NCBI GenBank assembly: GCA_016180845.1
Contig: JACPAK010000001.1
Location: forward strand, 225,707 to 289,706
Direction: 5' to 3'
Source of the DNA: Deltaproteobacteria bacterium
GTDB lineage: Bacteria; UBA10199; JACPAL01
Length of the DNA stretch: 64,000 nucleotides
The number at the start of each line of letters is the position of its first letter. The first letter of the stretch is position 1. The translations under genes were made by a program, and so were the position numbers. This document shows positions 3,025 to 20,772 of the stretch, piece by piece. Below the pieces are notes generated by a model, which made no database searches, had not been told where the DNA came from, and worked only from the letters and a program-made list of their open reading frames with translations.

Positions 3025-3032
3025 TGGCTGAA

Positions 3033-3329
3033 TTATTGTGCTGGCGTTCCTGGCTCCGCAGGAGCTTCAATCACCGGATGATGCCACCCCTTCATCTTAT
3101 CGCGATCGCAGCAACCTTTGATCCCCAGATAGGCGCTGCAGAGGATCGAAAGAATCGAGGCGATGGTCACAAGACCACCGATGATCTTTCCAGTTTTTTT
3201 ACAGAAAAACCCTTCGCCACAGGCCTTGTTCAGGAGCAGGACACCTGAGACCAAGGCGATGAACTGAAGGGCCAAAGCGGCATGCAGATGAAGATGCGAA
3301 CCGTGCATACAAGCCATATGTTCCATCAT
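3033..3329 (-). CDS. Small His/Cys-rich two-TM membrane protein; last gene of the cytochrome operon
   Basis: ATG at 3329 preceded by an AAAGGGGGA Shine-Dalgarno. Sequence MMEHMACMHGSHLHLH followed by two hydrophobic helices. The ORF-track start is an upstream GTG. Confidence 0.45.
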   Translation of the reverse strand: MMEHMACMHGSHLHLHAALALQFIALVSGVLLLNKACGEGFFCKKTGKIIGGLVTIASILSILCSAYLGIKGCCDRDKMKGWHHPVIEAPAEPGTPAQ

Positions 3330-3389
3330 AGATTGTCCCCCTTTTGGTTTGGATTCTATTATCACAAATATTAAAGGAGTCGACAGAAT

Positions 3390-3677
3390 TTATGGCGCCC
3401 CATTCGTTCCATGACAAGCGGCACAACCAGAAACCCCTTCTTGAAGGGCATGATCGTGTACCACCTCAATATCCACAAGCCCGCCGGTACGATCGATCAA
3501 GTGGATGTTATCCAGATTATGACAGGTGGTGCAGTCGCTCCGTCCCCAACCGATCTCATGCTCCGATTCTGTAAGAGCAAGCCCTTCCGGTGAATCCAAC
3601 AGGTTTCCGTAATTTTCCCCCTGATTGACGACACTCCCGCAGGAGATGAAGAACAACAAACCGAAGATTATTATCAT
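3390..3677 (-). CDS. Diheme cytochrome c lipoprotein
   Basis: Signal peptide with an LFFISC lipobox-like Cys, then CTTCH and CAACH heme motifs. ATGA overlap with the upstream heptaheme gene. Confidence 0.7.
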   Translation of the reverse strand: MIIIFGLLFFISCGSVVNQGENYGNLLDSPEGLALTESEHEIGWGRSDCTTCHNLDNIHLIDRTGGLVDIEVVHDHALQEGVSGCAACHGTNGAP

Positions 3678-4228
3678 CGTTTAGAACTCCCTCTTCCTGA
3701 ATGACACTCCTGACAGTAATTGATTGTATGACAGGCATCACACTTCCTCGGATTCGCGCGCGCCTCGACCGAATGAAAAAAACGGAAGTTTCGACGATGC
3801 ATCCGTTGCTGAACGGTATCCCGTCGGCTGTGACAGTCGACACAAAACCGTTTATTTGTGTGACAGGTTTCACACTCCTTCGGATTCTGTTTGGCAGAGA
3901 TCTGGTGTCTCGCCTTCCAATCGAGCCGATGACTCTTCGGCTTCGGTGGTCCCTCGAGATGACAGGTCACGCACGGCTTTTTGACATCGAGGATTGGCTT
4001 CGGGCTGTTGTGGCAAAGATGACATCCTTCCTTGTTGACCTTGTTCCGATCACCAAAGGACTCTGGATCGGCATGGCAGGTCTCGCAGGCAACCGACGCC
4101 GCCTCAAAAATCCCGGTATGCATCTCGTGATCGTAGAGATCAAAGGGGTGTTTTTTCTTCGCCTCAACCTTCATCGGAATCAAAAACAGGAGGCTTAGCG
4201 CAAAAATGATTTTATAGGATCGACCCAT
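3674..4228 (-). CDS. Periplasmic heptaheme cytochrome c
   Basis: Signal peptide followed by seven CxxCH motifs (CETCH, CHLCH, CVTCH, CETCH, CVDCH, CDACH, CQECH) in about 160 mature residues. Confidence 0.8.
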   Translation of the reverse strand: MGRSYKIIFALSLLFLIPMKVEAKKKHPFDLYDHEMHTGIFEAASVACETCHADPESFGDRNKVNKEGCHLCHNSPKPILDVKKPCVTCHLEGPPKPKSHRLDWKARHQISAKQNPKECETCHTNKRFCVDCHSRRDTVQQRMHRRNFRFFHSVEARANPRKCDACHTINYCQECHSGRGSSKR

Positions 4229-5489
4229 AGCGGTACTCCAATTTTAGTGATCCCCTCACATCCCGTTCCAAAAGATTGTTCCGATTGTACTCCCCACCGA
4301 TAGAAAGCCGGAGGTTGTGCGGAAACTCATAACCTGTCCAGACAATCGTCGAAAAGGCGCTGTCATTATCACTCGTAATCTTGTCGTACGTGGCATAATC
4401 AAACGACAATTCTCCGTATCCCTTTTTCAGGAGTGTCTTGTAGACAAAAAAACGGATCCCATGGACATCGCCACCGAAACTCTTTGCAAAAGAATATTGA
4501 GGGCCAAAATCGAGCTCAAGATTTTCAAGAGAAAAAGGGAAACCTATTTCGAGCAGATGGGCCCGCCGATGATCCGCCTCGCGAACCTCCATCCATTGGT
4601 AGGAATAACTTTGGGTAAGGTCGAGAAAATTTTTAATGAGTATCCAGTTCGAAGAAAACCGACCGGTGATTAGTTCCCCTTCGGAAAAAAGACTCAAGAT
4701 CGACCGCCGTGTCGACTCCCGATTCGCATTGAAATAATTCCCTTCGATCCCGATCGAAACAATAGAGAAAGGAGCCATATCAACGCCAAGGGTCCCCGTC
4801 TCTAGTGTCTTCGATCCGGTCTCATACTCAACAAGTCCTGAAATGAGCGGCCTCATCGATCCGGAAAAGAGGTAGGAGAGTGATGAACCGACCCGGATCT
4901 CGTCGTTTCTCCCCAGATCGGTCTCTCCCCAATCATTTTTCTGCCAGGCGGTTGATAATCGCGCCTGAAATCCTGATCCATTTTGCCAATCCAGAAAAAG
5001 CCCGGAGAGGAGTTGGTCATGATGGTGAAAATCCCCCTCTTCCACGCGTCTCGGAATTCCACCGTAGGTTCCGATACGAAAATTCTCTGTCGGATTGAGT
5101 GTTAACTGCAACCCATCGATAATCCCTGTCGAAAAACCGGGATTTAAAAATTGTCGACCAAAATCGATCTGAAACGATTCACGAGGCCTGACATGGAGAA
5201 CTGTTTGATAGAGATCATAATCATCCAAGGAACGATCGAGATCCCGGAAGAAGCGCATATCTGATTCGCCAGAAAATCTTCCGTCCGGCCTTCTCAGTCC
5301 CATACCCAGATAGCCATTGAGGGGGATCTCCGTCTCGTTTTTATCATTCTGACGAACTTGACTCAAAAGAGTTGTATTCAGATGGAACGGACTTCCCCAA
5401 ACAGGGGCTGAGAAGAGAAAAAGGGAGATGAATAATAAGGCACGCTCAACCACGTTATTCAAACCCCTCTGTCGTGAATGTCCATACAT
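4212..5489 (-). CDS. Outer-membrane beta-barrel protein, a candidate porin of a porin-cytochrome complex
   Basis: A signal peptide (RALLFISLFLFSAPVWG) follows an internal ATG (M53 of the ORF). About 420 residues of alternating amphipathic beta-strand pattern, and the protein ends in Y-R-Y-G-S-I-L. It sits between the giant and the heptaheme cytochromes. The start could instead be the M40 ATG at 5528. Confidence 0.6.
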   Translation of the reverse strand: MYGHSRQRGLNNVVERALLFISLFLFSAPVWGSPFHLNTTLLSQVRQNDKNETEIPLNGYLGMGLRRPDGRFSGESDMRFFRDLDRSLDDYDLYQTVLHVRPRESFQIDFGRQFLNPGFSTGIIDGLQLTLNPTENFRIGTYGGIPRRVEEGDFHHHDQLLSGLFLDWQNGSGFQARLSTAWQKNDWGETDLGRNDEIRVGSSLSYLFSGSMRPLISGLVEYETGSKTLETGTLGVDMAPFSIVSIGIEGNYFNANRESTRRSILSLFSEGELITGRFSSNWILIKNFLDLTQSYSYQWMEVREADHRRAHLLEIGFPFSLENLELDFGPQYSFAKSFGGDVHGIRFFVYKTLLKKGYGELSFDYATYDKITSDNDSAFSTIVWTGYEFPHNLRLSIGGEYNRNNLLERDVRGSLKLEYRYGSIL

Positions 5490-8400
5490 GATTTGTCGCC
5501 AATCGATTTCCGGCAAGATCTTGTGCATTCGTTGTGACTGTTGCCCGATAGACCGTCTCCTCACGAAGTGGCCGGGCATTGGTGGCAATCGTAAAATCAA
5601 CCGCCTGGCATGTCGCCGTCCGGCAATGGACGTTTCCACTGACACTTAACCACTCCCATCTCCGGGTTCTACTATTCCAATTCCTTCTTGAAAGGGTGAA
5701 GACGCCGGAAGACTCGACACTCGCCCGAATCATCGCCTCATTAAAATTAACTGTGATGATTGTGGTCGATGTCAAAACATCAGTCGCGCCGTTCGTGGGT
5801 ACCGTCGAATTCACAATCGGCCGAGTCGTGTCTGGGGTCAGGGTCGTAAAGGTCCAGCGATAATCTGTCGCTAGCGGCGTGCCGCCCCAGTCTGTCACCA
5901 CCGTGGTAATCCTTCCTCGATATTGGGTGTTCGGTTGCAGCGGGGTCTCCGGTGAAAAGGTCGCCGTCAGACACCAGTCGGCACTGCAAGCGACACGCCC
6001 TGCCACCCGACTTCCATCCGAAACCTTTTCCACAACAAAACTGTTTTCGACTGGAGGCGCTATTGTGCTGCGCAACATCGGCTCACTGAATGTAATTCTG
6101 ATGGTTGTCGGCGAGAAGGGTGTTCCCAACGCAACTCCCGTCGCCCCATTCGTCGGTATCGTTGAGGAAACGGCCGGTGGACCACTAGCAACCTGGTCAT
6201 TCCCAGGGGGATTGCAGTCAGGGAGTTCCGGTGGGAAGGGACGACTGCTGCTGTGACAGACACCGCCACATGTGCTCTCTGTTCGATAAGAGCGGTTCCC
6301 ATTGGTATGGCAGGAACCGTCGCTCCCACAGCCGCCTCTGGCAACGCTATCAATATTGTTATCGAGTAAGTAGAGCACGTGACCGAAGTTGGCAGCCGTT
6401 CGGGAACCACAGGTCGAACTGACGACCGGTTCCCAATTGTAAGAAGTGGTCCGTGCCGTTGGCGGATCTCCGCTTGTGACGATTTGCTCATAACCGACAT
6501 GGGGATAGTTCTGGTGACACATATAACAATAGGATCGGGAGACGAGTGTCGCACGTGTCTGTGTCTCATTGAAGGCAGTGGGAGAACCGTCATGACATCC
6601 GCCGCAATCCGCCTCACCCCAAGTGGCTGACGTGAAGCGACTTGAATAGGACACACCATGCCCCGATCCCCGCCACCACGTTGATGATGAATGGGGATAA
6701 CTCGGGTGACAGGTGTAACAGGAGATTGTCGAGATCCCCCCTCCGTAATCGTCCCCGTGACAACTTCGACACCCAACCCGGCTGGCATTGAACCTATCTC
6801 CGTGACGGGCGCTACTACTGCCCGTAACCCAATCCTGATCCTCAGAAACATCAGGCGACCGCAGATGCGGGTAGTTCGGATGGCAGGCAGCAGAACCGCA
6901 GGAGGTTGCGCGTCCATCGGGGCCTGCACCGAAATTCAAATGACACCGTGTGCAGCTACTCCTTAAACCCCGAACACCGTCCAAATAGGCGGTCGTATGC
7001 TCCCCTCCCTGATCGGTCTTCCAGTCCGTAACAAGTTGATGCGGATAGTTTTCGTGACACCCTGAACCGGAACAGGATCGGCCGGAATTACCACCGGCAT
7101 AGTTGGTTCCATGACAGAGCGAGCACCTGTTAAACGAATCGGGGAAATCATTATCCTGTTGTTCCAGATACTCCGCCGCATGGGGGCTTGGAAAATTTGC
7201 TGCCCGGCTCCGCTCAACATCCCAACAAGTCGGTTCATCAGCGCCGTCACACTCCTGCTCCGTCCAGGTCTCTGTCCCCACCTCATATTCCGTCCAGCCG
7301 GACCGATGCGGGAAATTGGTATGACAGGAATAGCAATTACGCCCATCAAATTCCCTCTGAAAATCGGTCCCATGACAGCCGGCACAACGCAACTGACGAT
7401 TCGCATCGCTGATCGCGAACGGCCCGTGCTCCGTCGTTTCCCAGTTCGGCAATAATTCATGCGGGTAGAGATGGCACTGCAGGCAGGGACGCGCCGCAGC
7501 GGTCCCCGCTATCTCCCGGTTATGACAGGTCATACAATTGTTAAACCCATCCCTCAAGACAACAGCACCATGTCCTGCGGCCCCACGCCAGTTGTCCTGA
7601 CTGTGGGTCTCCGGGAAGCCACTGTGGCATTCATTACAATTCGCCCCACGTGTCCGCTGAAGGTCCGGGATCAGATTCACCCCGTGACACCGCGCAGTCC
7701 CGCAGGTTGCACGTCCGTTTTCCTGGACAAAGTCGCCATGGAGTTGCGGCTGCCCTTGCTCACGACGCCATCCCTCAGGATGCGGAAAGGGGTTATGGCA
7801 CTCCCCGCAGCGTCGATTCCCTCGTGGAGACGAATCAGAGGTCAGGGAATGACAAGTCCTGCATTCGTTACGCATCAGGACAGGAAGCGCATAGGATCCA
7901 TGTCCTTCAAATTCACGCCATCCGGAGGGATGAGAACCGGCAAATGAGGGATGGCAGGAGAAACAGTTTTGTCCCTTGAGAACCTTTTTGAGATCGGCTC
8001 CATGACAGAGCTGGCATTTTTCTGTCTCCCCCTGATAGGTCACACGAACACGCTCTCCATGCCCTCCTGAAAAAGGGATCCAAGTAGCACTCGCCGGATG
8101 GGGATAATCGGCATGACAGGTGGTGCAATTTTTCCCGGCAACTAGTCTCTCTCCCCGCTCTCCATGACACCCCTGACAGGCGGTGCGACCAAGCTCCAAT
8201 GAGGTGGGACCATGCTGCGTCTGCCACCCTTCCCCATGCGGATAGAGGGTATGACAACGATTGCAGGCGATCTGCGAAAGTCCTCCATTCAGATCAGCTC
8301 CATGGCATTGTGTCGTACATCCTTCCCTCCCATTATCCAGAACATAAGGGGCATGCTTGGTCTTTTCTCCCCAACCGACTTCATGGGGATAGATCGCATG

Positions 8401-9009
8401 ACACTTGAAACAACTGGTCCCGCTCGACCCCCCTTTCAGATCCTCTCCATGACAAGACCGGCAGAGATCCTTCCCTTCCCCTTTCGCAAACTCTCCGTGA
8501 AAATTAGCCCCCTTCCATTCGGAAGAATGGGGATAGACTTCGTGACACTTTGTGCAGGAAACCTTGGTCAATCCGCCCGAGAGATCGGTCCCGTGACATT
8601 GAGTCGCACATGAAAGGCGGTCATTGGTTCTGACCCAAGTCCCGTGTCTCTCTTTCGATTTCCAGTCAGCCTCATGCGGGTAAAGGGGATGACAGCCCTG
8701 ACATGTCGGTGTTCTCTCGTTGGTCGTCGAACTGACCTTATGACACTTGAGACAGGCCGGAAGTCCGTACCGCTCCTTGCCACTCCCATGAGAGGCTGGT
8801 TCTTTCCACCCCTGCGGATGGGGAAAAAGGGGAAGAGGTTCTGCGATATTTCCGTCCGGAGAAATGCTGGGGGTAAGATCAGAAACATCACGGGAATGGG
8901 GCTTCTTTTTGGCACATCCAAAAAGAAGAAAAAGAAGAAAAAAAAAGACTAACCCTCTGAAAAAGACACCCTGACGCCAAGATCGTGGCAAGCGAAGACC
9001 CTCCATCAA
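5455..9009 (-). CDS. Giant multiheme cytochrome c lipoprotein, about 1184 aa and roughly 30 heme sites, with two C-terminal bacterial Ig-like domains
   Basis: Lipoprotein signal peptide (…FLLFLLFGC). About 23 canonical CxxCH motifs plus about 7 CX3-5CH variants. Recurring CxxCHxxYPHxxxW module. The C-terminal 230 aa contain two TxPTNGATxV…F(S/N)EPM Ig-like repeats. Confidence 0.85.
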   Translation of the reverse strand: MMEGLRLPRSWRQGVFFRGLVFFFLLFLLFGCAKKKPHSRDVSDLTPSISPDGNIAEPLPLFPHPQGWKEPASHGSGKERYGLPACLKCHKVSSTTNERTPTCQGCHPLYPHEADWKSKERHGTWVRTNDRLSCATQCHGTDLSGGLTKVSCTKCHEVYPHSSEWKGANFHGEFAKGEGKDLCRSCHGEDLKGGSSGTSCFKCHAIYPHEVGWGEKTKHAPYVLDNGREGCTTQCHGADLNGGLSQIACNRCHTLYPHGEGWQTQHGPTSLELGRTACQGCHGERGERLVAGKNCTTCHADYPHPASATWIPFSGGHGERVRVTYQGETEKCQLCHGADLKKVLKGQNCFSCHPSFAGSHPSGWREFEGHGSYALPVLMRNECRTCHSLTSDSSPRGNRRCGECHNPFPHPEGWRREQGQPQLHGDFVQENGRATCGTARCHGVNLIPDLQRTRGANCNECHSGFPETHSQDNWRGAAGHGAVVLRDGFNNCMTCHNREIAGTAAARPCLQCHLYPHELLPNWETTEHGPFAISDANRQLRCAGCHGTDFQREFDGRNCYSCHTNFPHRSGWTEYEVGTETWTEQECDGADEPTCWDVERSRAANFPSPHAAEYLEQQDNDFPDSFNRCSLCHGTNYAGGNSGRSCSGSGCHENYPHQLVTDWKTDQGGEHTTAYLDGVRGLRSSCTRCHLNFGAGPDGRATSCGSAACHPNYPHLRSPDVSEDQDWVTGSSSARHGDRFNASRVGCRSCHGDDYGGGISTISCYTCHPSYPHSSSTWWRGSGHGVSYSSRFTSATWGEADCGGCHDGSPTAFNETQTRATLVSRSYCYMCHQNYPHVGYEQIVTSGDPPTARTTSYNWEPVVSSTCGSRTAANFGHVLYLLDNNIDSVARGGCGSDGSCHTNGNRSYRTESTCGGVCHSSSRPFPPELPDCNPPGNDQVASGPPAVSSTIPTNGATGVALGTPFSPTTIRITFSEPMLRSTIAPPVENSFVVEKVSDGSRVAGRVACSADWCLTATFSPETPLQPNTQYRGRITTVVTDWGGTPLATDYRWTFTTLTPDTTRPIVNSTVPTNGATDVLTSTTIITVNFNEAMIRASVESSGVFTLSRRNWNSRTRRWEWLSVSGNVHCRTATCQAVDFTIATNARPLREETVYRATVTTNAQDLAGNRLATNHVWTFTTEGFE

Positions 9010-9099
9010 TATTATCGTCCAATAAGGCCTTAGGTAGATATGATACAGATCATCCCTTCGTAGGGCAAAAAGGTTTACTTATCAAAAGGGGGTGATTTT

Positions 9100-9351
9100 A
9101 TGCCGGGCCTCCACGTCAAATTCGAGATCTCGCCAGAGGAGTTTCTCTCACATCTGGCCGATGCCGCCTATCAGGTCGCCTTGAAACAAGGTTTTCGGGG
9201 TTCCTTCATCGATCTCCGATTGGGCCTTCAGAGGGCACTTCATGAAATGATCCGGAAAGATATGTTCGTCACCGATCTCTGCGGTCTCTACACCATCTGC
9301 CAGGAGGCAGAAAAAATCGAGCCCTGGTCGGAAAAGGCAGAGGAAGTGTGA
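9100..9351 (+). CDS. Hypothetical small protein (83 aa)
   Basis: ATG with a strong GGGGGTGA Shine-Dalgarno. No recognisable motif. Confidence 0.4.
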   Translation: MPGLHVKFEISPEEFLSHLADAAYQVALKQGFRGSFIDLRLGLQRALHEMIRKDMFVTDLCGLYTICQEAEKIEPWSEKAEEV

Positions 9352-9419
9352 CCTTGCGCAGTCCGAAACCTGATACCGATCATACCTCTTTTCCCTGAAT
9401 ACGCTGAGTATCCTCATTG

Positions 9420-10274
9420 ATGTATACAATATTGAAAAAAGAGGTCTTTTCCCCAACAACATTCCTTTGGGAGGTCTTGGCACCTGATATTGCTCATGCG
9501 GCAAGGGCAGGCCAGTTTGTCATGGTCCACCTCAACTCCTATGGGGAAAGGATCCCGCTCACCATCGCGGATTTTGATCGGGAAAAAGGAACGATCACGC
9601 TTGTCGTCAAGGTAGTCGGAAAAACGACCGAGGAGATGTCGACCTATGCTGAAGGAGCGACCTTTCTTGATCTGGTCGGACCGTTGGGGACACCAAGCCT
9701 GGTCGAGCCACTCAACCATGTCGTCCTCGTCGGGGGAGGGATCGGCATCGCCCCACTTTTGCCTATCCTGAGGGAATTCCGAGAGACCGGAAGTTATGTC
9801 ACCGTCATCGTCGGTTTCAGGACAATGGGAGAGATTTTCTGGAAAGCTCGATTTGAAAAACTCGCCCACCAACTCGTTTTGATGACCGAAGACGGTTCCT
9901 CAGGAGAAAAGGGGACGGTGATTGATGGTCTGAAAAAAATCCTTTCCGAGGAAACCCCGATTGAAGAGGTCCTCGCGATCGGCCCGATCGGAATGATGCA
10001 GGCGGTCGCCGAAACAACCCGCCCCTGGGAAATACCGACGTTCGTCTCGATGAATCCGATCATGGTGGATGGGATCGGAATGTGTGGTTCGTGTCGTGTG
10101 AAGGTTGGCGACAAAATTCTTTTTGCCTGTGTCGATGGACCGGACATGAATGGTCACCTGGTTGATTTCAAAGAACTGAAGACCCGGCAAATCCGATTCT
10201 TCAATGAAGAGCAAAGATGCCTGAAGGCCTATCATGAGAGGCAGCCTCCGCTCACCCAAGGAGGGTCGAGATGA
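9420..10274 (+). CDS. PyrK-like FAD/NAD(P)-binding 2Fe-2S oxidoreductase subunit (NfnA / sulfide dehydrogenase SudB family)
   Basis: Ferredoxin-NADP reductase fold with the C-terminal GMCGSCRV…FACVDGP 2Fe-2S motif. ATGA coupling to the downstream GltD-like gene. Confidence 0.75.
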   Translation: MYTILKKEVFSPTTFLWEVLAPDIAHAARAGQFVMVHLNSYGERIPLTIADFDREKGTITLVVKVVGKTTEEMSTYAEGATFLDLVGPLGTPSLVEPLNHVVLVGGGIGIAPLLPILREFRETGSYVTVIVGFRTMGEIFWKARFEKLAHQLVLMTEDGSSGEKGTVIDGLKKILSEETPIEEVLAIGPIGMMQAVAETTRPWEIPTFVSMNPIMVDGIGMCGSCRVKVGDKILFACVDGPDMNGHLVDFKELKTRQIRFFNEEQRCLKAYHERQPPLTQGGSR

Positions 10275-11845
10275 ATCGGGAAACAAAAAAATTAAACCCG
10301 AACCGGATCCCGATGCCGGAACTCCCGATCGATGCCCGACGTCTCCTCTTTGAAGAGGTCAACTGCGGTTATACGTTCGAAGAGGCCCAGGAAGAGGCGA
10401 CGCGGTGTCTCTTCTGCAAAAAACCGTTTTGTATCCAGGGCTGTCCCGTTGAGATTGATATCCCCGGCTTTATCAAAAAGATCGTCGAGGGGGATCTTCA
10501 TAGGGCCTATTCGATTCTCAGGGAATCCAACCCCCTGCCTGCCGTCTGCGGCCGTGTCTGTCCTCAAGAGACCCAATGCGAGGCACGATGTGTCGTTGGC
10601 AAGAAAGGAACTCCCGTAGCGATCGGGTGGCTCGAGCGATTTGTCGGAGATTGGGCGCTCCAGCAAGGCGAAGCACTCTCTGGTTTTTCTGCGTCGTCAG
10701 GTGCCTCCGCGGCGACCTTTAGGGCGCTAGCAGCCAATGAACCTTCTCGCACAAAACGCGAGTTTTCATTGTCTTCTAGCACTCCTAAAGGGCCCGCCGC
10801 TCCTGGCAATGCCGACTCGAAAATTCCAGAGAGTGCTTCGCCGCTGAAAATTGCCATCATCGGCTCCGGTCCCTCCGGTCTTGCCTGCGCCCAGGATCTG
10901 GCAACAGCCGGCATCGATGTCACTATTTTTGAGGCACTGCATGAAGCGGGTGGCGTCCTCTCCTATGGAATCCCCCCCTTTCGACTCCCGCGTTCGATCG
11001 TCGCGAAGGAGATCGATCAGCTCAAACATCTGGGAGTTCATTTTGAACTTAACAAGGTCATCGGAAAAATTTTCACGATTGAAGAACTTCTTCGGGAAAA
11101 AGATTTTCAGGCAGTCTTTATCGGCACCGGCGCCGGTCTCCCCAAATTTTTAGGGCTCCCGGGAGAACAACTGAATGGGGTGATGAGCGCTAATGAATTC
11201 CTGACGCGTCTTAACCTGATGGGGGGATATCGGAAGGCCGATACGCCGGTCGGGATGGGGAATCAGGTCACCGTCATCGGGGCCGGCAATACCGCCCTCG
11301 ACTCTGCGAGGATCGCCCTGAGACTCGGTGCTACAGTCACTGTCGTTTATCGCCGGACAGAGAGTGAGTCCCCTGCCCGTGCGGAGGAGCTCCGCCATGC
11401 GAAGGAGGAGGGGGTCCGGTTCGAATGGCTCACCAATCCTTTAGGATATCTCGGTGACGATCATCACTGTGTGCGAACGATGCGTTGCCTCCGAATGGCC
11501 TTGGGAGAACCGGATGAATCGGGCCGACGTTCCCCCCATCCTCTCCCCGGCACGGAATTTGAGATCCCCACAGATACCGTGATCTACGCCTTGGGAACCG
11601 TCGCCAATCCGATCATCGGCCGAAGCACCTTGGGCCTTAAAACAAACCGCTGGGGGTATATCGAAGTCGATCCGGAAACCGGCATGACCTCTCTTCCCGG
11701 TGTCTTTGCGGGTGGTGATATTGTGACCGGAGCGGCGACAGTCATCCAGGCGCTTGGAGCCGGAAGAAAGGCGGCGCGGGGAATTTTGCGTTACCTGAAT
11801 AAAGAGAATGTGAAGGAGGTGAGTTATGCCGTCGCAATGCCCTAA
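10271..11845 (+). CDS. Glutamate-synthase-small-subunit-like NAD(P)H oxidoreductase (NfnB/SudA/GltD family), carrying a roughly 60-aa low-complexity in-frame insertion
   Basis: N-terminal 2x[4Fe-4S] Cys motifs (CLFCKKPFCIQGCP, CGRVCPQETQCEARC). IAIIGSGPSGLACA dinucleotide-binding fold. C-terminal GGDIVTGAATVI. Confidence 0.8.
   Translation: MNRETKKLNPNRIPMPELPIDARRLLFEEVNCGYTFEEAQEEATRCLFCKKPFCIQGCPVEIDIPGFIKKIVEGDLHRAYSILRESNPLPAVCGRVCPQETQCEARCVVGKKGTPVAIGWLERFVGDWALQQGEALSGFSASSGASAATFRALAANEPSRTKREFSLSSSTPKGPAAPGNADSKIPESASPLKIAIIGSGPSGLACAQDLATAGIDVTIFEALHEAGGVLSYGIPPFRLPRSIVAKEIDQLKHLGVHFELNKVIGKIFTIEELLREKDFQAVFIGTGAGLPKFLGLPGEQLNGVMSANEFLTRLNLMGGYRKADTPVGMGNQVTVIGAGNTALDSARIALRLGATVTVVYRRTESESPARAEELRHAKEEGVRFEWLTNPLGYLGDDHHCVRTMRCLRMALGEPDESGRRSPHPLPGTEFEIPTDTVIYALGTVANPIIGRSTLGLKTNRWGYIEVDPETGMTSLPGVFAGGDIVTGAATVIQALGAGRKAARGILRYLNKENVKEVSYAVAMP
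10667..10842. repeat. A 176-bp imperfect palindrome inserted in frame into the NfnB-like gene
   Basis: Perfect 17-bp terminal inverted repeats: ggcgaagcactctctgg … ccagagagtgcttcgcc. Internal arms are also reverse-complementary (tttagggcgctagcagccaatgaa vs ttcattgtcttctagcactcctaaa). It encodes an S/A/P-rich linker absent from homologues. Confidence 0.7.
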
Positions 11846-12443
11846 ATGCCGGCAAGTCCTCGATGAAGATTATATCTGTTGCGCCGACATCCAGCTCCAG
11901 TGGAAATGTGTTGATTGTCATAAGCGTTCGATCGGCTTCGCCTTCCCCTTCGGTCGCTGTTCCCTCTGCGGCGGCAATCTGACACGCGTTGAACCTGTGA
12001 AAGAATTATCCAGAAATATCCAGCTCCTTCAGGAGGCGCTCCAGATTGAAATCACGAGCTCTCTTTTCTATCGTCGTCTCTCGGAAGCGGTCGACGATCC
12101 TGAAATCAGCGATTTTTTTGAGACCATGTCCGATTGGGAAAAGGAACATGCGCGTGAACTAAGTCAGAAATACCACCTGCATCTCGGCGAAGAGATGTTT
12201 CAGGACGACAACCTCCCACTGCCGTTTCCTTTTTTCGACGATCTTTCATTTTTCGCGGCAACAGGCAATCTCCGTCGTCTCTATGATTGTGGGATCTCTC
12301 TTGAGAAAAAAACGCTTCGTTTTTTTGAGGAAAAGGCACGCCAGATGCCAATGAGTCGTGAGAAAGAGCTGTATCAAGAACTCGCCGCTGAGGAGAGAGA
12401 CCATATCGCGCTTCTCGAATCAGAAAGGGACAAGAGGTGTTAA
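11826..12443 (+). CDS. Rubrerythrin/ferritin-like diiron protein with an N-terminal zinc-ribbon
   Basis: CPKC…C…CHK…CSLC zinc-ribbon, then ExxH motifs (EKEHAREL, ERDHIALL) typical of rubrerythrin-like four-helix-bundle diiron sites. Confidence 0.6.
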   Translation: MPSQCPKCRQVLDEDYICCADIQLQWKCVDCHKRSIGFAFPFGRCSLCGGNLTRVEPVKELSRNIQLLQEALQIEITSSLFYRRLSEAVDDPEISDFFETMSDWEKEHARELSQKYHLHLGEEMFQDDNLPLPFPFFDDLSFFAATGNLRRLYDCGISLEKKTLRFFEEKARQMPMSREKELYQELAAEERDHIALLESERDKRC

Positions 12444-13381
12444 TGTCAAAAGAACTCTTAAAAAAATTGGGAGCTGGGGAGACGATCGATGTTCGGGCTG
12501 ACGGGAAGGCAGGGAGTGGACTCGTGATGATCCTCCAGACCTTCGCCGAGGCGGTTTCCCTCAAGGGAGACTATCAGGTCCAGGAGTGGCCCTTTTTCAG
12601 TTCGGCCCGAAAAGGGGCGAATGTCCGCGGCTATCTCCGGATCGGGAAGGGACCAACATTTATCTCCTGCAAGGTGGATAAACCCCACCTCGCCCTGCTC
12701 GTTAGCGAAAAAACGGGGGAAGAACTCGACTTTGCGAGCGGCATGAATGAAGGAATCTATCTCATCAATAGTCCACGAAGCCCGGCAGAGACGGCAGACA
12801 GCTTCCACCTTCGAGGCCTCGTTTACACCATCCCGGGAGATCAGTTGGGGGAAAAATATCTCGGTCGCCCGCTCCCGAACATCCCGCTCTTAGCCGCCAT
12901 GCAGACGGCGCTCCCGCTCGTCTCCTCGACAGAGATACTCAAGGCCCTCGAAGATATCGGAAGGAAGAGGCGGCTCCCTGAGAAGATGATCGAGGCCAAC
13001 AAGACCTGTTTTCTCGAATCCCTTAAACTGATCCGGAGGGAGGAGATCCCGGGAGACCCTTCATGGAAACATCCACTCCCCCCGTTTGAGGGGTATCTCG
13101 ATTATCCGACAGGGGCCCAGAGCCGGCTTCGGACAAGTCTTTCAAACCAGACAGCGAACTACGCCCGGCCCGGGAGAAGGCTGGTCTTCCACGATCCGGA
13201 AAATCGCTGTAACGGCTGTAGTCTCTGCATCGTCAATTGTCCGGAGGGGATTATTCAATTTGAAAAGGATGAAAAGCAGGGTGTTCGCGTCACGGGAGCG
13301 AACATCGACCAATTCTGCAAACTTTGCCGTGAGTGTATTGAGGTCTGTCCCATCGATCTTTTTGAGGAGGTTGGATGCTGA
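12443..13381 (+). CDS. 2-oxoacid:ferredoxin oxidoreductase gamma-delta fusion subunit (POR/KOR/VOR family)
   Basis: N-terminal gamma-type domain, then C-terminal 2x[4Fe-4S] motifs (CNGCSLCIVNCP, CKLCRECIEVCP). Confidence 0.75.
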   Translation: MSKELLKKLGAGETIDVRADGKAGSGLVMILQTFAEAVSLKGDYQVQEWPFFSSARKGANVRGYLRIGKGPTFISCKVDKPHLALLVSEKTGEELDFASGMNEGIYLINSPRSPAETADSFHLRGLVYTIPGDQLGEKYLGRPLPNIPLLAAMQTALPLVSSTEILKALEDIGRKRRLPEKMIEANKTCFLESLKLIRREEIPGDPSWKHPLPPFEGYLDYPTGAQSRLRTSLSNQTANYARPGRRLVFHDPENRCNGCSLCIVNCPEGIIQFEKDEKQGVRVTGANIDQFCKLCRECIEVCPIDLFEEVGC

Positions 13382-13448
13382 TAAAGGCCCATCTGCTGCG
13401 TTACCTTGCATCTGGGACCTTTCTCAACATCCTTTTGGAGTGCCCAAG

Positions 13449-14759
13449 ATGACAAACCCAGCCGAAAAACTTTACGGTCGCTCCTTTCCAGGGATCATTG
13501 ATCTGGAAATGATTCGCAAATTACATCGACCTCTTTACCGGGAACGTCAAAGGGTCCAGAAGGATGGCAACGAGGCGGCAGCAATCGCGTCGCTCCAGTT
13601 CTGGAGGTCACCGATCTACGCTGGTTTTCCGATCACCCCCTCGACGAAATGGCTCGAGACGATCGCTGCCTCTGTAAACGGCGGTCGTTTTGTCATTGAA
13701 AGAAATGGCCAAAAGATCAGCACGAAACGGGTGAAACTCCTCGAGGCGGAGCATGCGGTTGCCGATTATCTCGCAGGGGCTGCTGCCGCCTGTCGCGAGC
13801 TGATCTTCATGACTGCCACTTCTTCTGTCGGTCTGGATCATATGACCGAGACGACACGTTCGCTTGGGGCCAGTGGGCTTGGAAATATCATGCTCATCAA
13901 TGTCTATCGAGCCACCGCCAATTATCCCCTCTGCATCGAAGGAGACCCTTCGGATACGCTGGCCCATCGGGATGACGGCTGGATCCAGGTGGTCTGCCGC
14001 GGGAAACAACAAATCTACGACACACTTCTCCAGCTTCCCTGCATCGGGATGCACCCTGATATCCTGATCCCGACAATGCCCGGCTTCTACGGAATCAAGG
14101 ACAGCCATCGCAGCGAACCGTTTTTTGTCGAACCGGATGAAAAGATCCATTCCTTTCAGGACAGTCTTTTGCCCGATCATTGCCATCTTCCCGGACTCAT
14201 CACAGGTGACACCTCCATGGGCAATTGTGTGACGAGCCCCTATTTTCAGGGATTCAAATGGGAACAGAGGCAGAGACTCGATCGTGTCTTTCACATCTTA
14301 AAAAGGACCTCAGCTGAATTTCAGCGGGAATTTGGTCGGCCGGGGATTGAACCGATCGAGACCTATTCCCTGGACGACTCCCCTCCGGTCATCCTCGTCG
14401 CCATGGGACCCGATACCACCACTGCATGGGAGGTACTTCGCCAGAAACGACAGGAGGGACAAAAAATCGGCCTCGTCGTGATCCGACTCCTCACTCCTTT
14501 TCCCCTCAATCTCGTCCGGCAGGCGCTTCGCTCCGCAGAAGCGGTGGGGGTTGTAAACAACGCCTTTCAATCAGAACGCGGGCATCTCACGGCGCTCGTG
14601 AGCGAGGCGGTCAACAATCTCCCGATAAAAACGGTCGGGTTCTTTACCGGCCTCGGCGCCGCCGACATCTCGACAGACTCATGGGAAAAGATGATCCGGC
14701 TGACGACGACCCTGAAAGAAGGGGGAAGCTGCTTCATCTATCGGGGGGAGGCGCTATGA
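13449..14759 (+). CDS. 2-oxoacid:ferredoxin oxidoreductase alpha subunit
   Basis: PorA/KorA-like sequence (YAGFPITPSTKWLE…). The ATG at 13449 follows the gamma-delta gene. The ORF-track N-terminal extension overlaps the upstream gene and is rejected. Confidence 0.75.
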   Translation: MTNPAEKLYGRSFPGIIDLEMIRKLHRPLYRERQRVQKDGNEAAAIASLQFWRSPIYAGFPITPSTKWLETIAASVNGGRFVIERNGQKISTKRVKLLEAEHAVADYLAGAAAACRELIFMTATSSVGLDHMTETTRSLGASGLGNIMLINVYRATANYPLCIEGDPSDTLAHRDDGWIQVVCRGKQQIYDTLLQLPCIGMHPDILIPTMPGFYGIKDSHRSEPFFVEPDEKIHSFQDSLLPDHCHLPGLITGDTSMGNCVTSPYFQGFKWEQRQRLDRVFHILKRTSAEFQREFGRPGIEPIETYSLDDSPPVILVAMGPDTTTAWEVLRQKRQEGQKIGLVVIRLLTPFPLNLVRQALRSAEAVGVVNNAFQSERGHLTALVSEAVNNLPIKTVGFFTGLGAADISTDSWEKMIRLTTTLKEGGSCFIYRGEAL

Positions 14760-15784
14760 CGATCCGACAACTTCCTCCGTATAAGGAAATGGCCAGAAAG
14801 GACTCCTGCTTCCGACCCGGCTCGACCTTGTGTGTCGGATGCATGGAATCGATCGCATTCCAGAATTTCGGGCGAGTGACGGACAACGGGACCAAAACCA
14901 TCTACACGATGGGGACCTTCTGCGGCGAGGTGTCGACACTCTTCTGGCCTGGGGTAATCTCCTGGGGGCGTGGAGAGACGGAACCAGCAGCTTTTGAAAA
15001 ATCATTTTCCATTATTCATAACGTTTTTGAATCCGCCCCGACAGTCGCCGAGGGGATCCGGGATACCGCCGATATCCTGACCGAACTGGGGGCGCTTCAG
15101 AAACCGATTCAGGTTGTTTCGAACTCCGGAGATGGGGGCGCGCTCGTCATCGGGCTTCGATCACTGCTGCATACGATTCAACGAAAGACACGCATCACGG
15201 TTGTCGTCATGATCAACGAATTTTTTGCGAACACCGGCTTTCAATTCGCCTCAACAACAACCCCCTATTCGGAAACCTCCACAACCCCCCCAGGGGAATT
15301 TATCCCCGGAAATCTCTCGGAACCGATGAATCATATCGGACTTGTCTTGATGGCAGGGGCCGGTTACGTCGCCCAAGTCTCACCGGCATTTCCGAAGGAG
15401 TTCACGGAGGCGTGTGAAAAGGCGCTTGCCTGTCCGGAAACATCGGTCCTCTTCGTCCCCTCCCCTTGCATCGCGGGGTGGAAGTATGAAGAGGGGAAGA
15501 CGATTGAGCTTGCCAAGCTCGCCTCCGAATCAGGTCTCTTCCCAACCTTCCTAAAGGAAAAAGGAAAGGAAGGAATCATGAAATATGTCGCGCCTGATTC
15601 GACCCGATCCCAAAAACTGCTAAACTTTCTCAGTGAGCAGAGGCGATTTAATCACCTCGTCCGAAAAAACAAAGAGGATCTCCCTTCCGTCGTGTCAGGA
15701 CGGGAAAAAGAATTGAAAACAATCGAGGAATGGATCGCTAAGAACCTGAAGAACTTGAACGCCCTCTCGAAATGGGATCAGTGA
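14756..15784 (+). CDS. 2-oxoacid:ferredoxin oxidoreductase beta subunit (TPP-binding)
   Basis: ATGA overlap with alpha. CVGCMES Cys motif and a TPP-binding GDGG region (SNSGDGGALVIG). Confidence 0.75.
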   Translation: MTIRQLPPYKEMARKDSCFRPGSTLCVGCMESIAFQNFGRVTDNGTKTIYTMGTFCGEVSTLFWPGVISWGRGETEPAAFEKSFSIIHNVFESAPTVAEGIRDTADILTELGALQKPIQVVSNSGDGGALVIGLRSLLHTIQRKTRITVVVMINEFFANTGFQFASTTTPYSETSTTPPGEFIPGNLSEPMNHIGLVLMAGAGYVAQVSPAFPKEFTEACEKALACPETSVLFVPSPCIAGWKYEEGKTIELAKLASESGLFPTFLKEKGKEGIMKYVAPDSTRSQKLLNFLSEQRRFNHLVRKNKEDLPSVVSGREKELKTIEEWIAKNLKNLNALSKWDQ

Positions 15785-15872
15785 CCTGATCCTCGTCATA
15801 CCCTCTTGTCCATGATTCACTCATAATGTTAAAGTTAAGTTTTGAAGAATACTGAAAAAAGGGAGGTGTCTT

Positions 15873-16475
15873 ATGGTGAAAGAAACCATTGTCGAACCGA
15901 CCGATGCCCTCATCCTAATCGACATCCAGAAAGACTTCTTTGAAGGGGGATTCTTCCCGGTCAAGGGGGCCGATGAGATCCTGAAGCCATTGCTCTCCGT
16001 CATGAGTCTCTTCCCTCTGATCGTCGCCACGCAGGACTGGCATTATATTGAACAGTTCACCCACCAGAAGGAGGGGGTTTACGAAACTGGACACTGCATT
16101 GAAAGGACCCCCGGGGCTGATCTCCATCCCCTCCTCGCCAATCAACATCTCGACCTCACGATTCGGAGGGGACCAAAAAAGGATGGGGAGTCATTCTCGG
16201 TCTTTGAACAAAGCGAGCTTGCAACCTGGCTGCTTCGAAAGAGGTGCCGCCGGATCTTCGTGATGGGATTCACGACCGAGTATGGTGTGAAAGAAACCGT
16301 TCTTGACGGTCTCAAACGGGGATTCAAGGTCTTCGTCATTGAGGAAGGGGTAAAATCCCGAGGCTCCGCTACAGAAGGAGCTAAGGCGCTGGACGAGATG
16401 AAACGGGCCGGGGCTCATCTGGTCTCCGAGGAAGAGCTTGTCCCGGAAAAGGGTCGCGTGACTGTCGGGGAATAG
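15873..16475 (+). CDS. Isochorismatase-family cysteine hydrolase (nicotinamidase PncA-like)
   Basis: ALILIDIQKDF motif and a catalytic Cys in the RIFVMGFTTEYGV region. Confidence 0.65.
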   Translation: MVKETIVEPTDALILIDIQKDFFEGGFFPVKGADEILKPLLSVMSLFPLIVATQDWHYIEQFTHQKEGVYETGHCIERTPGADLHPLLANQHLDLTIRRGPKKDGESFSVFEQSELATWLLRKRCRRIFVMGFTTEYGVKETVLDGLKRGFKVFVIEEGVKSRGSATEGAKALDEMKRAGAHLVSEEELVPEKGRVTVGE

Positions 16476-16477
16476 AT

Positions 16478-16870
16478 TCAGATCTGATCGATCGTCGTTC
16501 CTTCCGCCCACTTCCGGAAGGCTGACTTGACCTCTTTCCAGGAAGAATGGAGGGGACAGTGGTGGGCCCCTCCGCACCGCTTCCAGCCAAAAATGCAATG
16601 TCCGTCCCCTGATGGATAACCGATGGCCCTTAAAATATCATCGATCCGGATTGATTCCGGGGGAGAGGCGAGTCGGTATCCGCCATCAGGCCCCTTGCGG
16701 GAGAGAAGAAGTCTCTTGCGAACGAGCGATCTCAAGACTTTAAAGAGAAAAGGAAGGGGAACATGGGTTAATCGGGCGAGGTCGCTGGCGTTAATCCCTC
16801 GATCAACACCCTGTCTCATGATCTCAACCATCACTCGCAACGCATATTCTGCTGTCTTCGGAAGCTGCAT
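16478..16870 (-). CDS. Rrf2-family transcriptional regulator (IscR/NsrR-like) with three Fe-S ligand cysteines
   Basis: N-terminal MQLPKTAEYALRVM HTH. C-terminal C-x6-C-x5-C cluster (CIFGWKRCGGAHHC). Divergent from the nxr-like operon. Confidence 0.7.
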   Translation of the reverse strand: MQLPKTAEYALRVMVEIMRQGVDRGINASDLARLTHVPLPFLFKVLRSLVRKRLLLSRKGPDGGYRLASPPESIRIDDILRAIGYPSGDGHCIFGWKRCGGAHHCPLHSSWKEVKSAFRKWAEGTTIDQI

Positions 16871-16976
16871 AAAAAATATTCTAAGATGAACCATACCGAA
16901 ATCACCTGACCACAATCATGTGATCGGCTGATTCGAATCATTCTCTCGAGACACGACTTCTCGATAATGGACCTTG

Positions 16977-19900
16977 ATGTCCAAAATACATCCCCTTTCT
17001 CGGCGTGAGTTCTTAAAAAAGGCAGGGCTAGGTGCAGGGGCTTATGCACTTTTATCGTCCAGCACCTACGCCTATTTAAAACCGATTGTCGGGGTTGATA
17101 ACCCGCTCGAATTTTATCCTTCACGCGACTGGGAAAAGGTCTACCGGGATCAATATCGATACGATTCTTCCTTCACGTTTGTCTGTTCCCCGAATGACAC
17201 CCATGCCTGTCGCGTGCGGGCCTTTGTCCGCAATGGGATCCTGGTCCGGACAGAGCAGAACTATGATGTCCAGAGATATTCCGATCTTTACGGCAACAAG
17301 GCCTCCCCGAACTGGAATCCACGCATGTGTCCGAAGGGGTATACCCTGGCACAACGGATGTACGGTCCGAATCGGCTCAAGGATCCCGTGGTGCGCAAGG
17401 GATGGCGTGCGTGGGTCAAGGATGGCTGTCCCTATCTGACCCCGGAACTCAAAAAGAAATACAAGTTTGACAGTCGCGGAAGCGACGAACTCCAATTCAT
17501 CGCATGGGACGAGGCGTATGATCTGGCCGCTCGGGCGATGATTGCGATTGCCACTATGTACAATGGTGACGAGGGGGCCAAACGGCTTGCCGAAGAGGGA
17601 TACGTTCCCGAGATGATCCAGCGGATGGAGGGATCGGGGATGCGCACCCTGAAATACCGCGGTGGGATGGGACTCCTCGGGGTCATCGGAAAGTTCGGGA
17701 TGTATCGCTTCTCGAACATGATGGCGCTGGTCGACAGCCACCTCCGTGGCGTAGAAGAAAAAGAGGCGAAGGGGGGGCGGAGTTGGGACAACTACACCGA
17801 ACATGGGGACCAAGCCCCCGGCTATCCTTTTGTCCACGGACTCCAGACCTCCGATTGCGATTTTAATGACCTCCGCTTTACGAAGCTTCATATCCAATGC
17901 GGCAAGAACCTCGTCGAGAACAAGATGCCGGAGTCCCACTGGTTTATCGAATCAATTGAGCGAGGGGCGAAGGTCGTCACAATCACGCCGGAATACAGCC
18001 CACCCGCAACCAAATCGGATTACTGGATCCCGGTCCGACCCGCCTCCGATGCGGCAATTTTTCTTGGGATTGCGAAGATCCTGATCGACCGGAAGTGGTA
18101 CGATGCCGAGTTCGTCAAAAAATTTACCGATCTCCCGCTTCTGGTCCGGACGGACAACCTCAAACGCCTGCATGCCGCCGAGGTTTTCCCCGGATACCAG
18201 CCGGGGTTGAGTCCCGAGGGGGCAAGCCTCAAGGAGCAAGGTCTTACGAAGGAACAATACGGGCAGTTGGGAGATTTTGTCGTGCGAGACACCGTCTCCG
18301 GCGATTTCAAGGCGGTCACGCGTGACGACGTCGGAAACCATCTGAAGGAAAAAGGGATCGATCCGGTTCTCGAATGGAGAGGCATGGTCAAAATGGCCGA
18401 TGGAACCACTGTCGAGACAACGACACTATGGGAGGCGTACAAGATCCACCTCAAGGACTACGACCTCGACACCGTCGCCGAAGTCACTCAGGCACCGAAA
18501 GGGTTGATCGAACAGCTGGCGAAGGACCTTGCAACAATCAAACCGGCCGCGATCCATATGGGTGAGGGGATCAATCACTGGTTCCATGCGACCGAGGTGA
18601 ATCGAGCGACGCTGCTCCCGCTCATGCTGACCGGAAACATCGGGCAGCAGGGGGCTGGCTCATTCACCTGGGCGGGCAATTATAAATCGGCCAATTTTCA
18701 GGCGGCTCCGGGTGTCGGCGCTGGCTTGGGTGTCTGGGTCGCCGAGGACCCGTTTCATCCCACGCTTGATTCCAAAACTCCCGGCAAGGACGTGCAGGTT
18801 AAAAACTACGCCCTCGAGGAAGGGGCCTCTTATTGGGCGCACGGAGATCATCCGCTGATCGTTGAAACCCCAAAGTTTGGTCGGAAGATGTTTACCGGAA
18901 AGACCCACATGCCCTCTCCGACGAAGGGGATGTGGTTCACCAACGTGAATCACATTAATAATTCGAAGTGGGCCTACCAGGTGATCAAGAACGTCTTGCC
19001 GACCTGCAACATGATCGCCGTGACGGATGTCGAACTGAACGGAACGATCGAATATGCCGACATCGCCTTCCCGGCCAGTTGGTGGGCGGAAATCGAAAAC
19101 TACGAGGTCACCAGCTCCTGCTCCAATCCGTTCCTCCAGATCTGGAAGGGATCGCTCAAGCCTCCTCTCAATACAAAAGACGACGTCCAGATCCTCGCGG
19201 GAGTTGCGAAGCGGTTGGGGGAAATTTTGGGCGACCGGCGGTTTGAGGATTATTGGAAATTTGTCCACCAGAAAAAGACAGAGGTTTATATCCAGAGACT
19301 CCTCGATGCCTCGATGACACTCCACGGTTACCGTTTCGATGACATTATCACAGGGAAATATGGGGAACCGGGGGCTGCCCTGATGCTCTACAGGACCTAT
19401 CCCCGCATCCCCTTCTGGGAACAGGTCCACGAGGACAAGCCTTTCTTTACCGATACCGGCAGACTCAACAGTTATTGCGACATCCCGGAGGCGATCGAAT
19501 ACGGGGAAAATTTTATTGTCCACCGCGAGGGACCGGAGGCGACCCCTTACCTCCCCAACGCCATCCTTTCCACCAATCCCCTGGTTCGCCCGGAAGATTA
19601 TGGAATCCCACCGGACGATATGGAGGCGGAGGCGCGTCACGTCCGCAATATCAAGATGTCCTGGCAACAACTCAAGGGGACCGAAAATCCGCTCTGGAGG
19701 CAGGGGTTTCAGTTTTACTGTGTCACCCCGAAGACGCGGCACACCGTCCATTCGCAGTGGTCCAATGTCACCTGGAATCGTGTCTGGGCAAGCAACTTCG
19801 CCGACCAGTTGCGTGAGGACAAGCGGCAACCGGACGCTGCCGATCATCAAGTCCATATCAATCCGCAGGCGGCGAAGGACCTTGGGATCAACGACGGTGA

Positions 19901-20426: not shown

Positions 20427-20772
20427 AGAGGAAAACAAAGTGTCGGCGAGTGCAGGATCTGGCTTTGCCAGTCCGGAGCGAGAGGGGACCGGGGGGAAGG
20501 GGCCCTCTTCCGCTTGCGGAAGGGGCAGCGTTCCCCCCGATCCAGAAGACCCGTTTGAGATGGTCCAGCAGTTTATCGACGTGCCGGCGGATGACCGGTT
20601 CTACGATCAGATGGCCCGGACGTTCATCGAGGAATATTTAATGATGGGATGGAGTGACGAAGAAATCTTCAGTCTCTTTCAGGAACCTTTTTACAGAGGC
20701 ACGCATGATATTTTGCAAAAGAAGGGTGAGGCCTTCGTGAAGAGCCTGATCCATGAGGTGAGACATGGCTAA
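20419..20772 (+). CDS. Small hypothetical protein encoded between the alpha and beta subunits; low-complexity N-terminus
   Basis: The ATG overlaps the alpha stop codon. G/S/P-rich N-terminus, then a conserved-looking acidic helical segment. The ORF ends where the beta gene starts. Confidence 0.4.
   Translation: MAEEENKVSASAGSGFASPEREGTGGKGPSSACGRGSVPPDPEDPFEMVQQFIDVPADDRFYDQMARTFIEEYLMMGWSDEEIFSLFQEPFYRGTHDILQKKGEAFVKSLIHEVRHG

Follow-up and report, generated by a model that had tools for sequence, protein, structure and literature searches.

The window, by which we mean the whole 64,000-nucleotide stretch of 'Deltaproteobacteria' DNA that was analysed, contains a gene for an oxidoreductase of the NfnB/GltD small-chain kind whose reading frame runs through a long palindrome. 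The genes and features of this locus are as follows, with positions given as those of the window.

9417 to 10274, + strand: upstream partner gene, NfnA-like, with FAD/NAD-binding plus DHODB-type 2Fe-2S.
10271 to 11845, + strand: host gene, an NfnB / GltD-small-chain-like oxidoreductase of 524 aa, with all Fe-S cysteines present and GxGxxG intact.
10667 to 10842, no strand assigned: palindromic element, a 176-nt imperfect full-length palindrome, giving host-protein residues 133-190 when read on the + strand.
10667 to 10683, + strand: left terminal arm, a perfect 17 nt, GGCGAAGCACTCTCTGG, whose outermost GCGAAG is the sole stretch of the arm in common with the second copy.
10826 to 10842, + strand: right terminal arm, CCAGAGAGTGCTTCGCC, the perfect complement of the left arm.
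10692 to 10817, no strand assigned: conserved core of 126 nt, 92% identical (E 1e-49) to positions 5995-6120 of a second locus (L063), on the opposite strand.
10743 to 10762, + strand: apex 20-mer, CTTCTCGCACAAAACGCGAG, with the hairpin CTCGC-ACAAAAC-GCGAG at 10746-10762, the same in both copies.

The host protein combines a Fer4_20 domain with two 4Fe-4S motifs (Pfam, residues 27-133) and an FAD/NADPH Pyr_redox_2 domain (residues 193-497), with the element between them. Together with the adjacent NfnA-like gene, these are the features of NfnB or the glutamate synthase small chain, and judged by them the host gene encodes an NfnB-type subunit, a central redox enzyme whose specificity may be that of Nfn or another. 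The nearest solved structures are T. maritima NfnB (4ylf_B, E 1e-154) and P. furiosus NfnI. Genes for rubrerythrin and pyruvate:ferredoxin oxidoreductase come after the host gene, and the order of nfnA-like gene, host gene and downstream rubrerythrin gene is also found at three other loci (L001, L105 and L106). With the NfnA-like partner upstream and the gene order kept in this way, the host gene belongs to a conserved operon.

A sequence-only reading of this DNA had described a 176-bp palindrome with perfect 17-bp ends in the linker of this gene, and exactly such a palindrome is found at 10667-10842. Its terminal inverted repeat, GGCGAAGCACTCTCTGG / CCAGAGAGTGCTTCGCC, is perfect over 17 nt and grows to 33-nt arms at 82% complementarity. 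Only about 0.001 such 17-nt pairs would be expected by chance less than 250 nt apart in a 64-kb window of this base composition, and no other inverted repeat in the window is as strong. The prediction of its fold, proposed in the same reading as a check, gave a result far beyond chance. The whole 176 nt form one long bulged hairpin, with a folding energy of -58.9 kcal/mol under DNA parameters compared to -28.8 +/- 3.3 kcal/mol for shuffled sequences (z = -9.0, 0/200 shuffles as good) and about -102 kcal/mol under RNA parameters. A covariance model built from the two copies recovers 10664-10845 at 218 bits, while the Rfam covariance models gave no relevant match at E <= 1 between positions 9000 and 13000. 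The GC content of the element is 57%. The element had also been counted as one of three such in-frame palindromes in the window. The other palindromes within ORFs (20486-20543, 35724-35807 and 56192-56239) are real; however, they are much shorter and unrelated in sequence, and do not form one family with it.

The start of the element coincides exactly with codon 133, and 58 codons are read through it without a stop (GEALSG...IPESAS). On each strand, frame 0 is the only stop-free frame of the element. Ser, Ala, Pro, Gly and Thr make up 66% of the insert peptide, in agreement with the earlier description of a Ser/Ala/Pro-rich, in-frame linker between the Fe-S and FAD domains, and the continuity of the ORF suggests that the insert is translated as part of the host protein. 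The GC content at the three codon positions is 0.53/0.71/0.45 in the insert versus 0.62/0.45/0.60 in the rest of the gene, a pattern expected of DNA whose past evolution was not that of a coding sequence.

That the linker has been enlarged is evident from an alignment of 120 homologues (the window protein and 119 others), from which linker lengths were taken. Between the invariant anchors D127 and G198 there are 70 residues in the window protein, while the other 119 have 22-37, with 23 being the length in 79/119. The closest orthologous locus, L001, has the same gene order and a protein that is 83% identical outside the insert. Its DNA flanks are approximately 85% identical to those of the window and are conserved up to CCAGCA and again from AAAAT.GCCATC on, with the element absent and a 42-nt linker between the conserved flanks where the window has about 180 nt. 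The match to 4ylf_B is likewise interrupted at query residues 133-189, which correspond to chain residues 127-139. Comparison with orthologues thus bears out an insertion into the NfnB linker. It was not, however, the simple in-frame addition that had been proposed. The net gain is about 47 codons (~141 nt), while the palindrome measures 176 nt or 58.7 codons, which is not a multiple of three. The frame was kept, and since the gain is smaller than the palindrome, the element must replace most of the ancestral variable linker and did not arrive by clean cut-and-paste insertion. The L001 linker holds a perfect 10-bp hairpin of its own. The idea that the NfnB linker is a general palindrome hotspot was considered and rejected, the hairpins in L001, L105 and L106 being weak (z = -2.2, -1.5 and -0.25, respectively).

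Structure prediction had been suggested as a way to see whether the protein tolerates the insert. In an AlphaFold2 model based on 25 sequences, residues 136-186 lack secondary structure and have a pLDDT <50. Both domains are modelled, and the model reaches target-normalised TM scores of 0.87-0.88 against 5jca_L and 4ylf_B. The insert is therefore predicted to be a disordered loop between two intact domains. The deposited GenBank protein (P0001, MBI2082168.1) has 407 aa and lacks the Fe-S domain, and it seems that the insert derailed the public annotation of the host protein. Such elements should consequently be considered wherever the gene models of MAGs look truncated.

An assembly or sequencing artefact, such as a fold-back chimera, would be the most trivial origin of a palindrome of this kind. 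The source is a MAG, and palindromes are known to trip some library preparations and assemblers. Nevertheless, the Logan assembly of SRR12113431 (L103, 14,477 nt) is 100% identical to positions 2830-17306 of the window, element included, and this independent assembly excludes an artefact of the deposited one, contradicting what had been named as a possible refutation. Moreover, the palindrome is imperfect and has conserved bulges, its reading frame is kept, and a homologous copy is present in another assembly. We consider an artefact extremely unlikely.

This second copy was found when concatenated six-frame translations were compared with 5.8 billion proteins. Only two carriers emerged, the window's own P0001 (MBI2082168.1) and P0121 (MBI2980782.1), a GHMP-kinase fragment from another 'Deltaproteobacteria' MAG (L063, GCA_016193425.1), where it lies in an ispE-prs-rplY-pth cluster. 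Positions 5995-6120 of L063 are 92% identical to window positions 10817-10692 over 126 nt (E 1e-49). The L063 copy spans 5972-6143, has its own 31-nt terminal inverted repeat (5972-6002 / 6113-6143), folds with z = -8.3 and is read in the frame of the C-terminal ORF of ispE (P0121), in the opposite orientation relative to its host gene from that of the nfnB copy. IspE homologues are without the element, including the IspE of the window's own 804,652-bp contig (P0124), which is 61% identical to P0121. Beyond the element, the flanks of the two copies have nothing in common. By this sequence comparison, two distantly related genomes have the same element, each in a different gene, and with a second, 92%-identical copy what had been a palindrome becomes a repeat family. 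A core that is 92% identical in genomes whose IspE proteins are only about 61% identical implies that the element either spread horizontally in recent times or is under strong constraint.

The ispE carrier is itself broken. Compared to the near-identical strain L104, ispE in L063 has a 71-nt frameshifting deletion, and it may be a pseudogene or an assembly error. The L063 copy is therefore no demonstration of tolerance in a working gene. L063 and L104 are 100% identical downstream of ispE, 97.5% identical directly to the right of the element and 80% identical to its left, and L104 has a small, different palindrome at the element's place. Recombination at the element could have produced this breakpoint in identity, as could an assembler that switched strains.

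Comparison of the two copies indicates what is constrained. All 59 pairs of the consensus structure are formed in both copies; both partners have changed in 11 of these and a single partner in 1, and none is broken. None of 500 shuffles reached this result, and slid partners give 0-1 double changes. Within the core there are 10 substitutions, 6 of which make up 3 compensatory pairs while the remaining 4 fall at unpaired positions, and the internal loops and bulges are conserved. What the copies have in common is this core and the outermost GCGAAG/CTTCGC. Between these, a subterminal stem of about 18 nt per arm cannot be aligned from one copy to the other, and still the arms of each copy are complementary to one another; this difference may have arisen by block substitution or by symmetric indels. 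The two orientations encode unrelated peptides, and neither of the two frames nor the ispE insert matched Pfam or NCBIfam at E <= 10. With stem pairs kept and peptides unrelated, the constraint must lie on the nucleic-acid hairpin and not on the protein. In both copies, 58/59 pairs are Watson-Crick and G-T pairs are nearly absent, which points to DNA, or to both strands, rather than to a single RNA strand. Two causes fit the maintenance of pairing, namely selection for a hairpin needed in propagation or arm-to-arm templated correction. Quasipalindromes undergo such correction during replication. Fast homogenisation is made less likely by the bulges, which both copies have kept.

The apex of the hairpin offers the sole hint as to mechanism. 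The 20-mer CTTCTCGCACAAAACGCGAG is the exact core of a short REP-like hairpin, approximately ccccaCTTCTCGCACAAAACGCGAGaaatggggcaccc, which occurs in 39 soil-metagenome contigs, often several times per contig and sometimes as inverted doublets. These 39 contigs were considered as carriers of the full element and rejected, as all belong to this different, short REP-like family, and the likeness ends at 20-22 nt. It is very unlikely that 20 nt would be identical to the consensus of an abundant repeat by chance. An unpaired CTT is also common to both, which suggests common descent or a recognition module in common. The apex may thus hint at a hairpin-recognising enzyme of the RAYT/IS200-like kind.

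Further copies were sought in several ways. No other was seen in the 64-kb window or in about 9 kb outside it, so that the source genome has one copy in ~73 kb; the second lineage likewise has one in the ~13 kb that was covered. The proposal to search genomes for the 17-bp terminal repeat was extended to 185,579 species-representative genomes, where it returned 61 single, unrelated matches, none extending past 20-28 nt; this is close to a rough estimate of ~70 by chance, and the scan is insensitive because it is at the termini that the family varies. The window has just one further near-match to the 17-mer, with 3 mismatches, at 53154-53170 within a gene for an MFS transporter. A scan of JGI metagenome contigs with the apex 20-mer found no full element, and viral contigs gave 0 matches. 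Neither blastn against plasmids and phages nor the two-copy covariance model, applied to 250 kb (the window, ~9 kb beyond it and related loci), found a copy, diverged copies included in the latter case. When the peptide of the reverse frame was compared by HMMER with 1.84 billion representative proteins, only P0121 and P0242 were recovered; the latter is a tandem-repeat protein whose score was summed from its repeats, and it was judged spurious as a carrier.

Signs of a mobilising enzyme were also looked for. Among ~35 larger ORFs no transposase was found, the window showed no RAYT, and a cognate IS with matching ends was not found within it. Neither copy is flanked by a direct repeat of more than 2-4 nt that would mark a target-site duplication, and there is no clean empty site to compare; as L001 (for nfnB) and L104 (for ispE) differ over the whole variable loop, the boundaries of the element cannot be fixed. 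A derivation of the outer arms from the host flanks was considered as well, but the alignments are ambiguous and the common GCGAAG/CTTCGC termini argue against it.

Taken together, we think it likely that the NfnB linker carries a copy of a small palindromic repeat, non-autonomous and of the MITE or Rickettsia palindromic element (RPE) kind, which is conserved as a hairpin and not as a peptide. Such an element would have entered NfnB by landing or by recombination, at the variable surface linker that joins its Fe-S and FAD domains. It would have survived there because its stop-free frame would give a disordered loop rich in Ser, Ala and Pro, with both domains left intact, in which case the insert may well be neutral for the host. 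The hairpin would be needed for propagation, where an enzyme provided in trans would most likely recognise it as single-stranded DNA, and mobility by transposition would then depend on a hairpin intermediate. Alternatively, its symmetry may be kept by arm-to-arm templated repair.

Could the palindrome have arisen in place, without any mobile element? Template switching in a length-tolerant linker, by inverted duplication or quasipalindrome correction, would explain why the outer arms are perfect (17 bp in the window copy and 13 bp in L063) while the inner stems hold old mismatches, why the subterminal arms are wholly different between the copies and still self-complementary, and why the net gain is smaller than the palindrome. 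Double changes without G-T intermediates are also what arm-to-arm templating is expected to leave, and the L001 linker has a perfect hairpin too. However, independent local events cannot yield a 92%-identical core of 126 nt in a different gene of a distant genome, nor do they sit well with internal loops and bulges conserved between the copies, and the linker hairpins of other homologues are weak (z = -0.25 to -2.2). A local origin could account only for the outer arms, as a secondary event on a pre-existing element, and for the element as a whole we regard it as highly improbable. Horizontally transferred DNA could instead have been patched in by homologous or illegitimate recombination, with the element as a passenger at the junction and no transposition involved. 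The breakpoint in identity between L063 and L104 coincides with the element, the host genes have diverged far more than the core, and both MAGs apparently come from the same large submission, judging from their protein accession series. Against this, the flanks of the two copies show no likeness beyond the element, the breakpoint could be a strain switch by the metagenome assembler, and an element moving between unrelated genes would still be needed. Such a patch is in our view unlikely.

It is similarly improbable that the element was exapted for a function of its own, such as an mRNA structure for pausing translation between the Fe-S and FAD domains, an RNase III site or a flexible NfnAB tether. 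A strictly maintained structure, a position exactly at the domain boundary, an otherwise intact host gene and a weakly terminator-like apex could all be taken as support, yet the number of terminator-like structures equals the shuffle expectation, the loop is predicted to be disordered, and 0/119 NfnB homologues need such a linker. A copy of the element also occurs inverted in an unrelated gene, where it encodes a different peptide, and the near absence of G-U pairs speaks against a constraint on RNA only. Somewhat less improbable, though still doubtful, is that the mobile repeat favoured above belongs to an undescribed class of hairpin replicators, combining a REP-like apex, symmetric remodelling of the arms (fold-back-templated growth), horizontal spread among distant uncultivated bacteria and in-frame colonisation of protein loops, possibly driven by HUH or RAYT enzymes. 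If this were true, the class, seen here for the first time, would be the free-living counterpart of the 'coding palindromes' of Rickettsia.

The mobile repeat that we favour extends the phenomenon of coding palindromes to a free-living, uncultivated groundwater lineage, where it affects an NfnB-type enzyme and, in a relative, ispE. The structure-preserving changes between the two copies amount to a small natural experiment on the evolution of hairpin elements. A core conserved between distant hosts, divergence that preserves structure, an apex in common with a soil repeat and a free-living, uncultivated lineage make a targeted genome-wide search worthwhile.

Among known systems, coding palindromes are best known from Rickettsia, with occasional intragenic, in-frame copies for ERIC and QMITE1 (PMC10969869). 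There, RPE-1 to RPE-10 are palindromic repeats found in frame in housekeeping genes (Ogata et al., 2000, 2002; PMC10969869). The element resembles these as a palindromic repeat of roughly 100-180 nt that occurs in frame in unrelated housekeeping genes, in either orientation, adding a peptide at a tolerant, surface-type position while the host fold is preserved. Like RPEs, which measure about 100-150 bp, both copies form a long hairpin (176 nt with z = -9.0 in the window, z = -8.3 in the second), and both appear to be read through in frame, with the ORF unbroken in nfnB and in P0121. The searches with Pfam and NCBIfam (E <= 10) gave no homology to an RPE peptide; NCBIfam presumably inherits the RPE domain models from TIGRFAMs. 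In addition, the host is a free-living groundwater 'Deltaproteobacteria' MAG and not a member of the Rickettsiales, two copies are known here compared to dozens per Rickettsia genome, and the peptide is not conserved between copies owing to their opposite orientation. The likening of the insert to RPEs and MITEs in the sequence-only reading thus holds for behaviour (a second in-frame copy, fold and frame) but not for membership in an RPE family, as no RPE model matches.

Elements such as ERIC/IRU, Correia/NEMIS, RUP, QMITE1 and Chunjie provide a second comparison, being MITEs of <500 bp with terminal inverted repeats and no coding capacity of their own (PMC10969869). The present element agrees in size and ends (176 nt, with 17-nt perfect and 33-nt imperfect repeats) and contains no transposase gene. 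Hairpin MITEs also form a stable stem-loop as a transcript or as single-stranded DNA, and ERIC and QMITE1 have occasional in-frame intragenic copies (PMC10969869). Unlike these elements, ours is not AT-rich and may be low in copy number, and neither a target-site duplication nor a cognate IS was found for it. In contrast to a typical MITE, its centre is conserved and its subterminal arms are variable, which is the reverse of the usual arrangement.

REPINs, finally, are extragenic elements of 70-110 nt in which two inverted terminal REPs enclose a variable spacer, and they occur in hundreds of copies beside a RAYT gene (PMC3116915). They are mobilised by RAYT tyrosine transposases through a proposed single-strand hairpin intermediate, with no target duplication expected (PMC3116915), and changes on one side of the hairpin are commonly compensated on the other (Bertels and Rainey, 2011; PMC3116915). 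As in REPINs, a long hairpin is the evolving unit here, with compensatory changes (11 double and 0 broken of 59 pairs). The REP/REPIN-RAYT architecture is nonetheless absent: the REP-like hairpin is single and central, the conserved part being the centre, the arms are not REP hairpins, and the match to a REP-like family is confined to the apex 20-mer. The element is also intragenic, and no RAYT was seen in the window. We conclude that the element represents a new small family of RPE/MITE-like coding palindromes, a known phenomenon in a new lineage.

The 176-nt element in the nfnB-like gene has probably misled the GenBank annotation of that gene. The deposited protein, labelled 'FAD-dependent oxidoreductase' (MBI2082168.1, 407 aa), has its start placed on an ATC at window position 10622, which is codon I118 of the nfnB-like ORF and lies just 5' of the element; the protein is devoid of the entire Fe-S domain. 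The ORF clearly reaches back to 10271, giving a protein of 524 aa; as called in Logan, the protein has 510 aa.

The second copy of the element lies at the ispE locus of MAG GCA_016193425.1 (L063), which can be compared with that of a near-identical sister strain (L104; L063 5420-6419 vs L104 1-631). On one side of the element the two are 80% identical and on the other 97.5-100%, and the ispE of the MAG carries a 71-nt deletion, with the frame shifted and the region after the GLGG motif gone. In the IspE protein of the window's own contig (P0124), known here from the protein alone, two loops are of unusual length, EKKSPHAPLCQRGETPPLVGGDFQ and ETGDSGRAPARAQRVSTGGRNPRQDPPLVA, and they coincide in position with the palindromic inserts of L063 and L104.

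Three further palindromes of the window are located within ORFs:

20486-20543: near-contiguous palindrome of 58 nt, its 28-nt arms 79% complementary and 2 nt apart, inside ORF 20311-20772
35724-35807: GC-rich palindrome (arms AAGGGCGGGT / ACCCGCCCTT), within ORF 35121-36530, M20/ArgE-like peptidase
56192-56239: small G/C-run palindrome (AAAATCCCCCC..CCCCCTTTGTCAAAGGGGGG..), within ORF 55690-56838, phosphomannose-isomerase-like

The palindrome at 20486-20543 is additional to those named in the sequence-only reading. That at 35724-35807 reads in frame as KGGWLGSGARPRATGEHGWAEPETGPAL and has no sequence relationship with the 176-nt element. The small palindrome at 56192-56239 likewise reads in frame, as NPPNPPLSKGGKGGF, and inserts resembling this peptide, of the 'PP[LF]SKGG' type, are found in the ispE of both L104 (300-350) and L063 (about 5630-5660). 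Similar inserts also occupy loops of other IspE/NfnB homologues (P0135, with P0004 and P0012 being similar). Together, the 56192-56239 palindrome and these inserts look like a second in-frame palindrome family, one that is more widespread. A separate perfect 10-bp hairpin (TCAGACAGGT-CCG-ACCTGTCTGA) is present at 645-667 of the closest orthologous nfnB locus (L001), in the same linker, and is weakly significant (z = -2.2; 4/200 shuffles were equally good).

Outside of these genomes, a short REP-like hairpin family, about ccccaCTTCTCGCACAAAACGCGAGaaatggggcaccc, is abundant in 39 JGI soil-metagenome contigs (L064-L102), often with several copies per contig and also as inverted doublets. This family has no match in Rfam. 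It has its 20-nt core in common with the apex of the 176-nt element.
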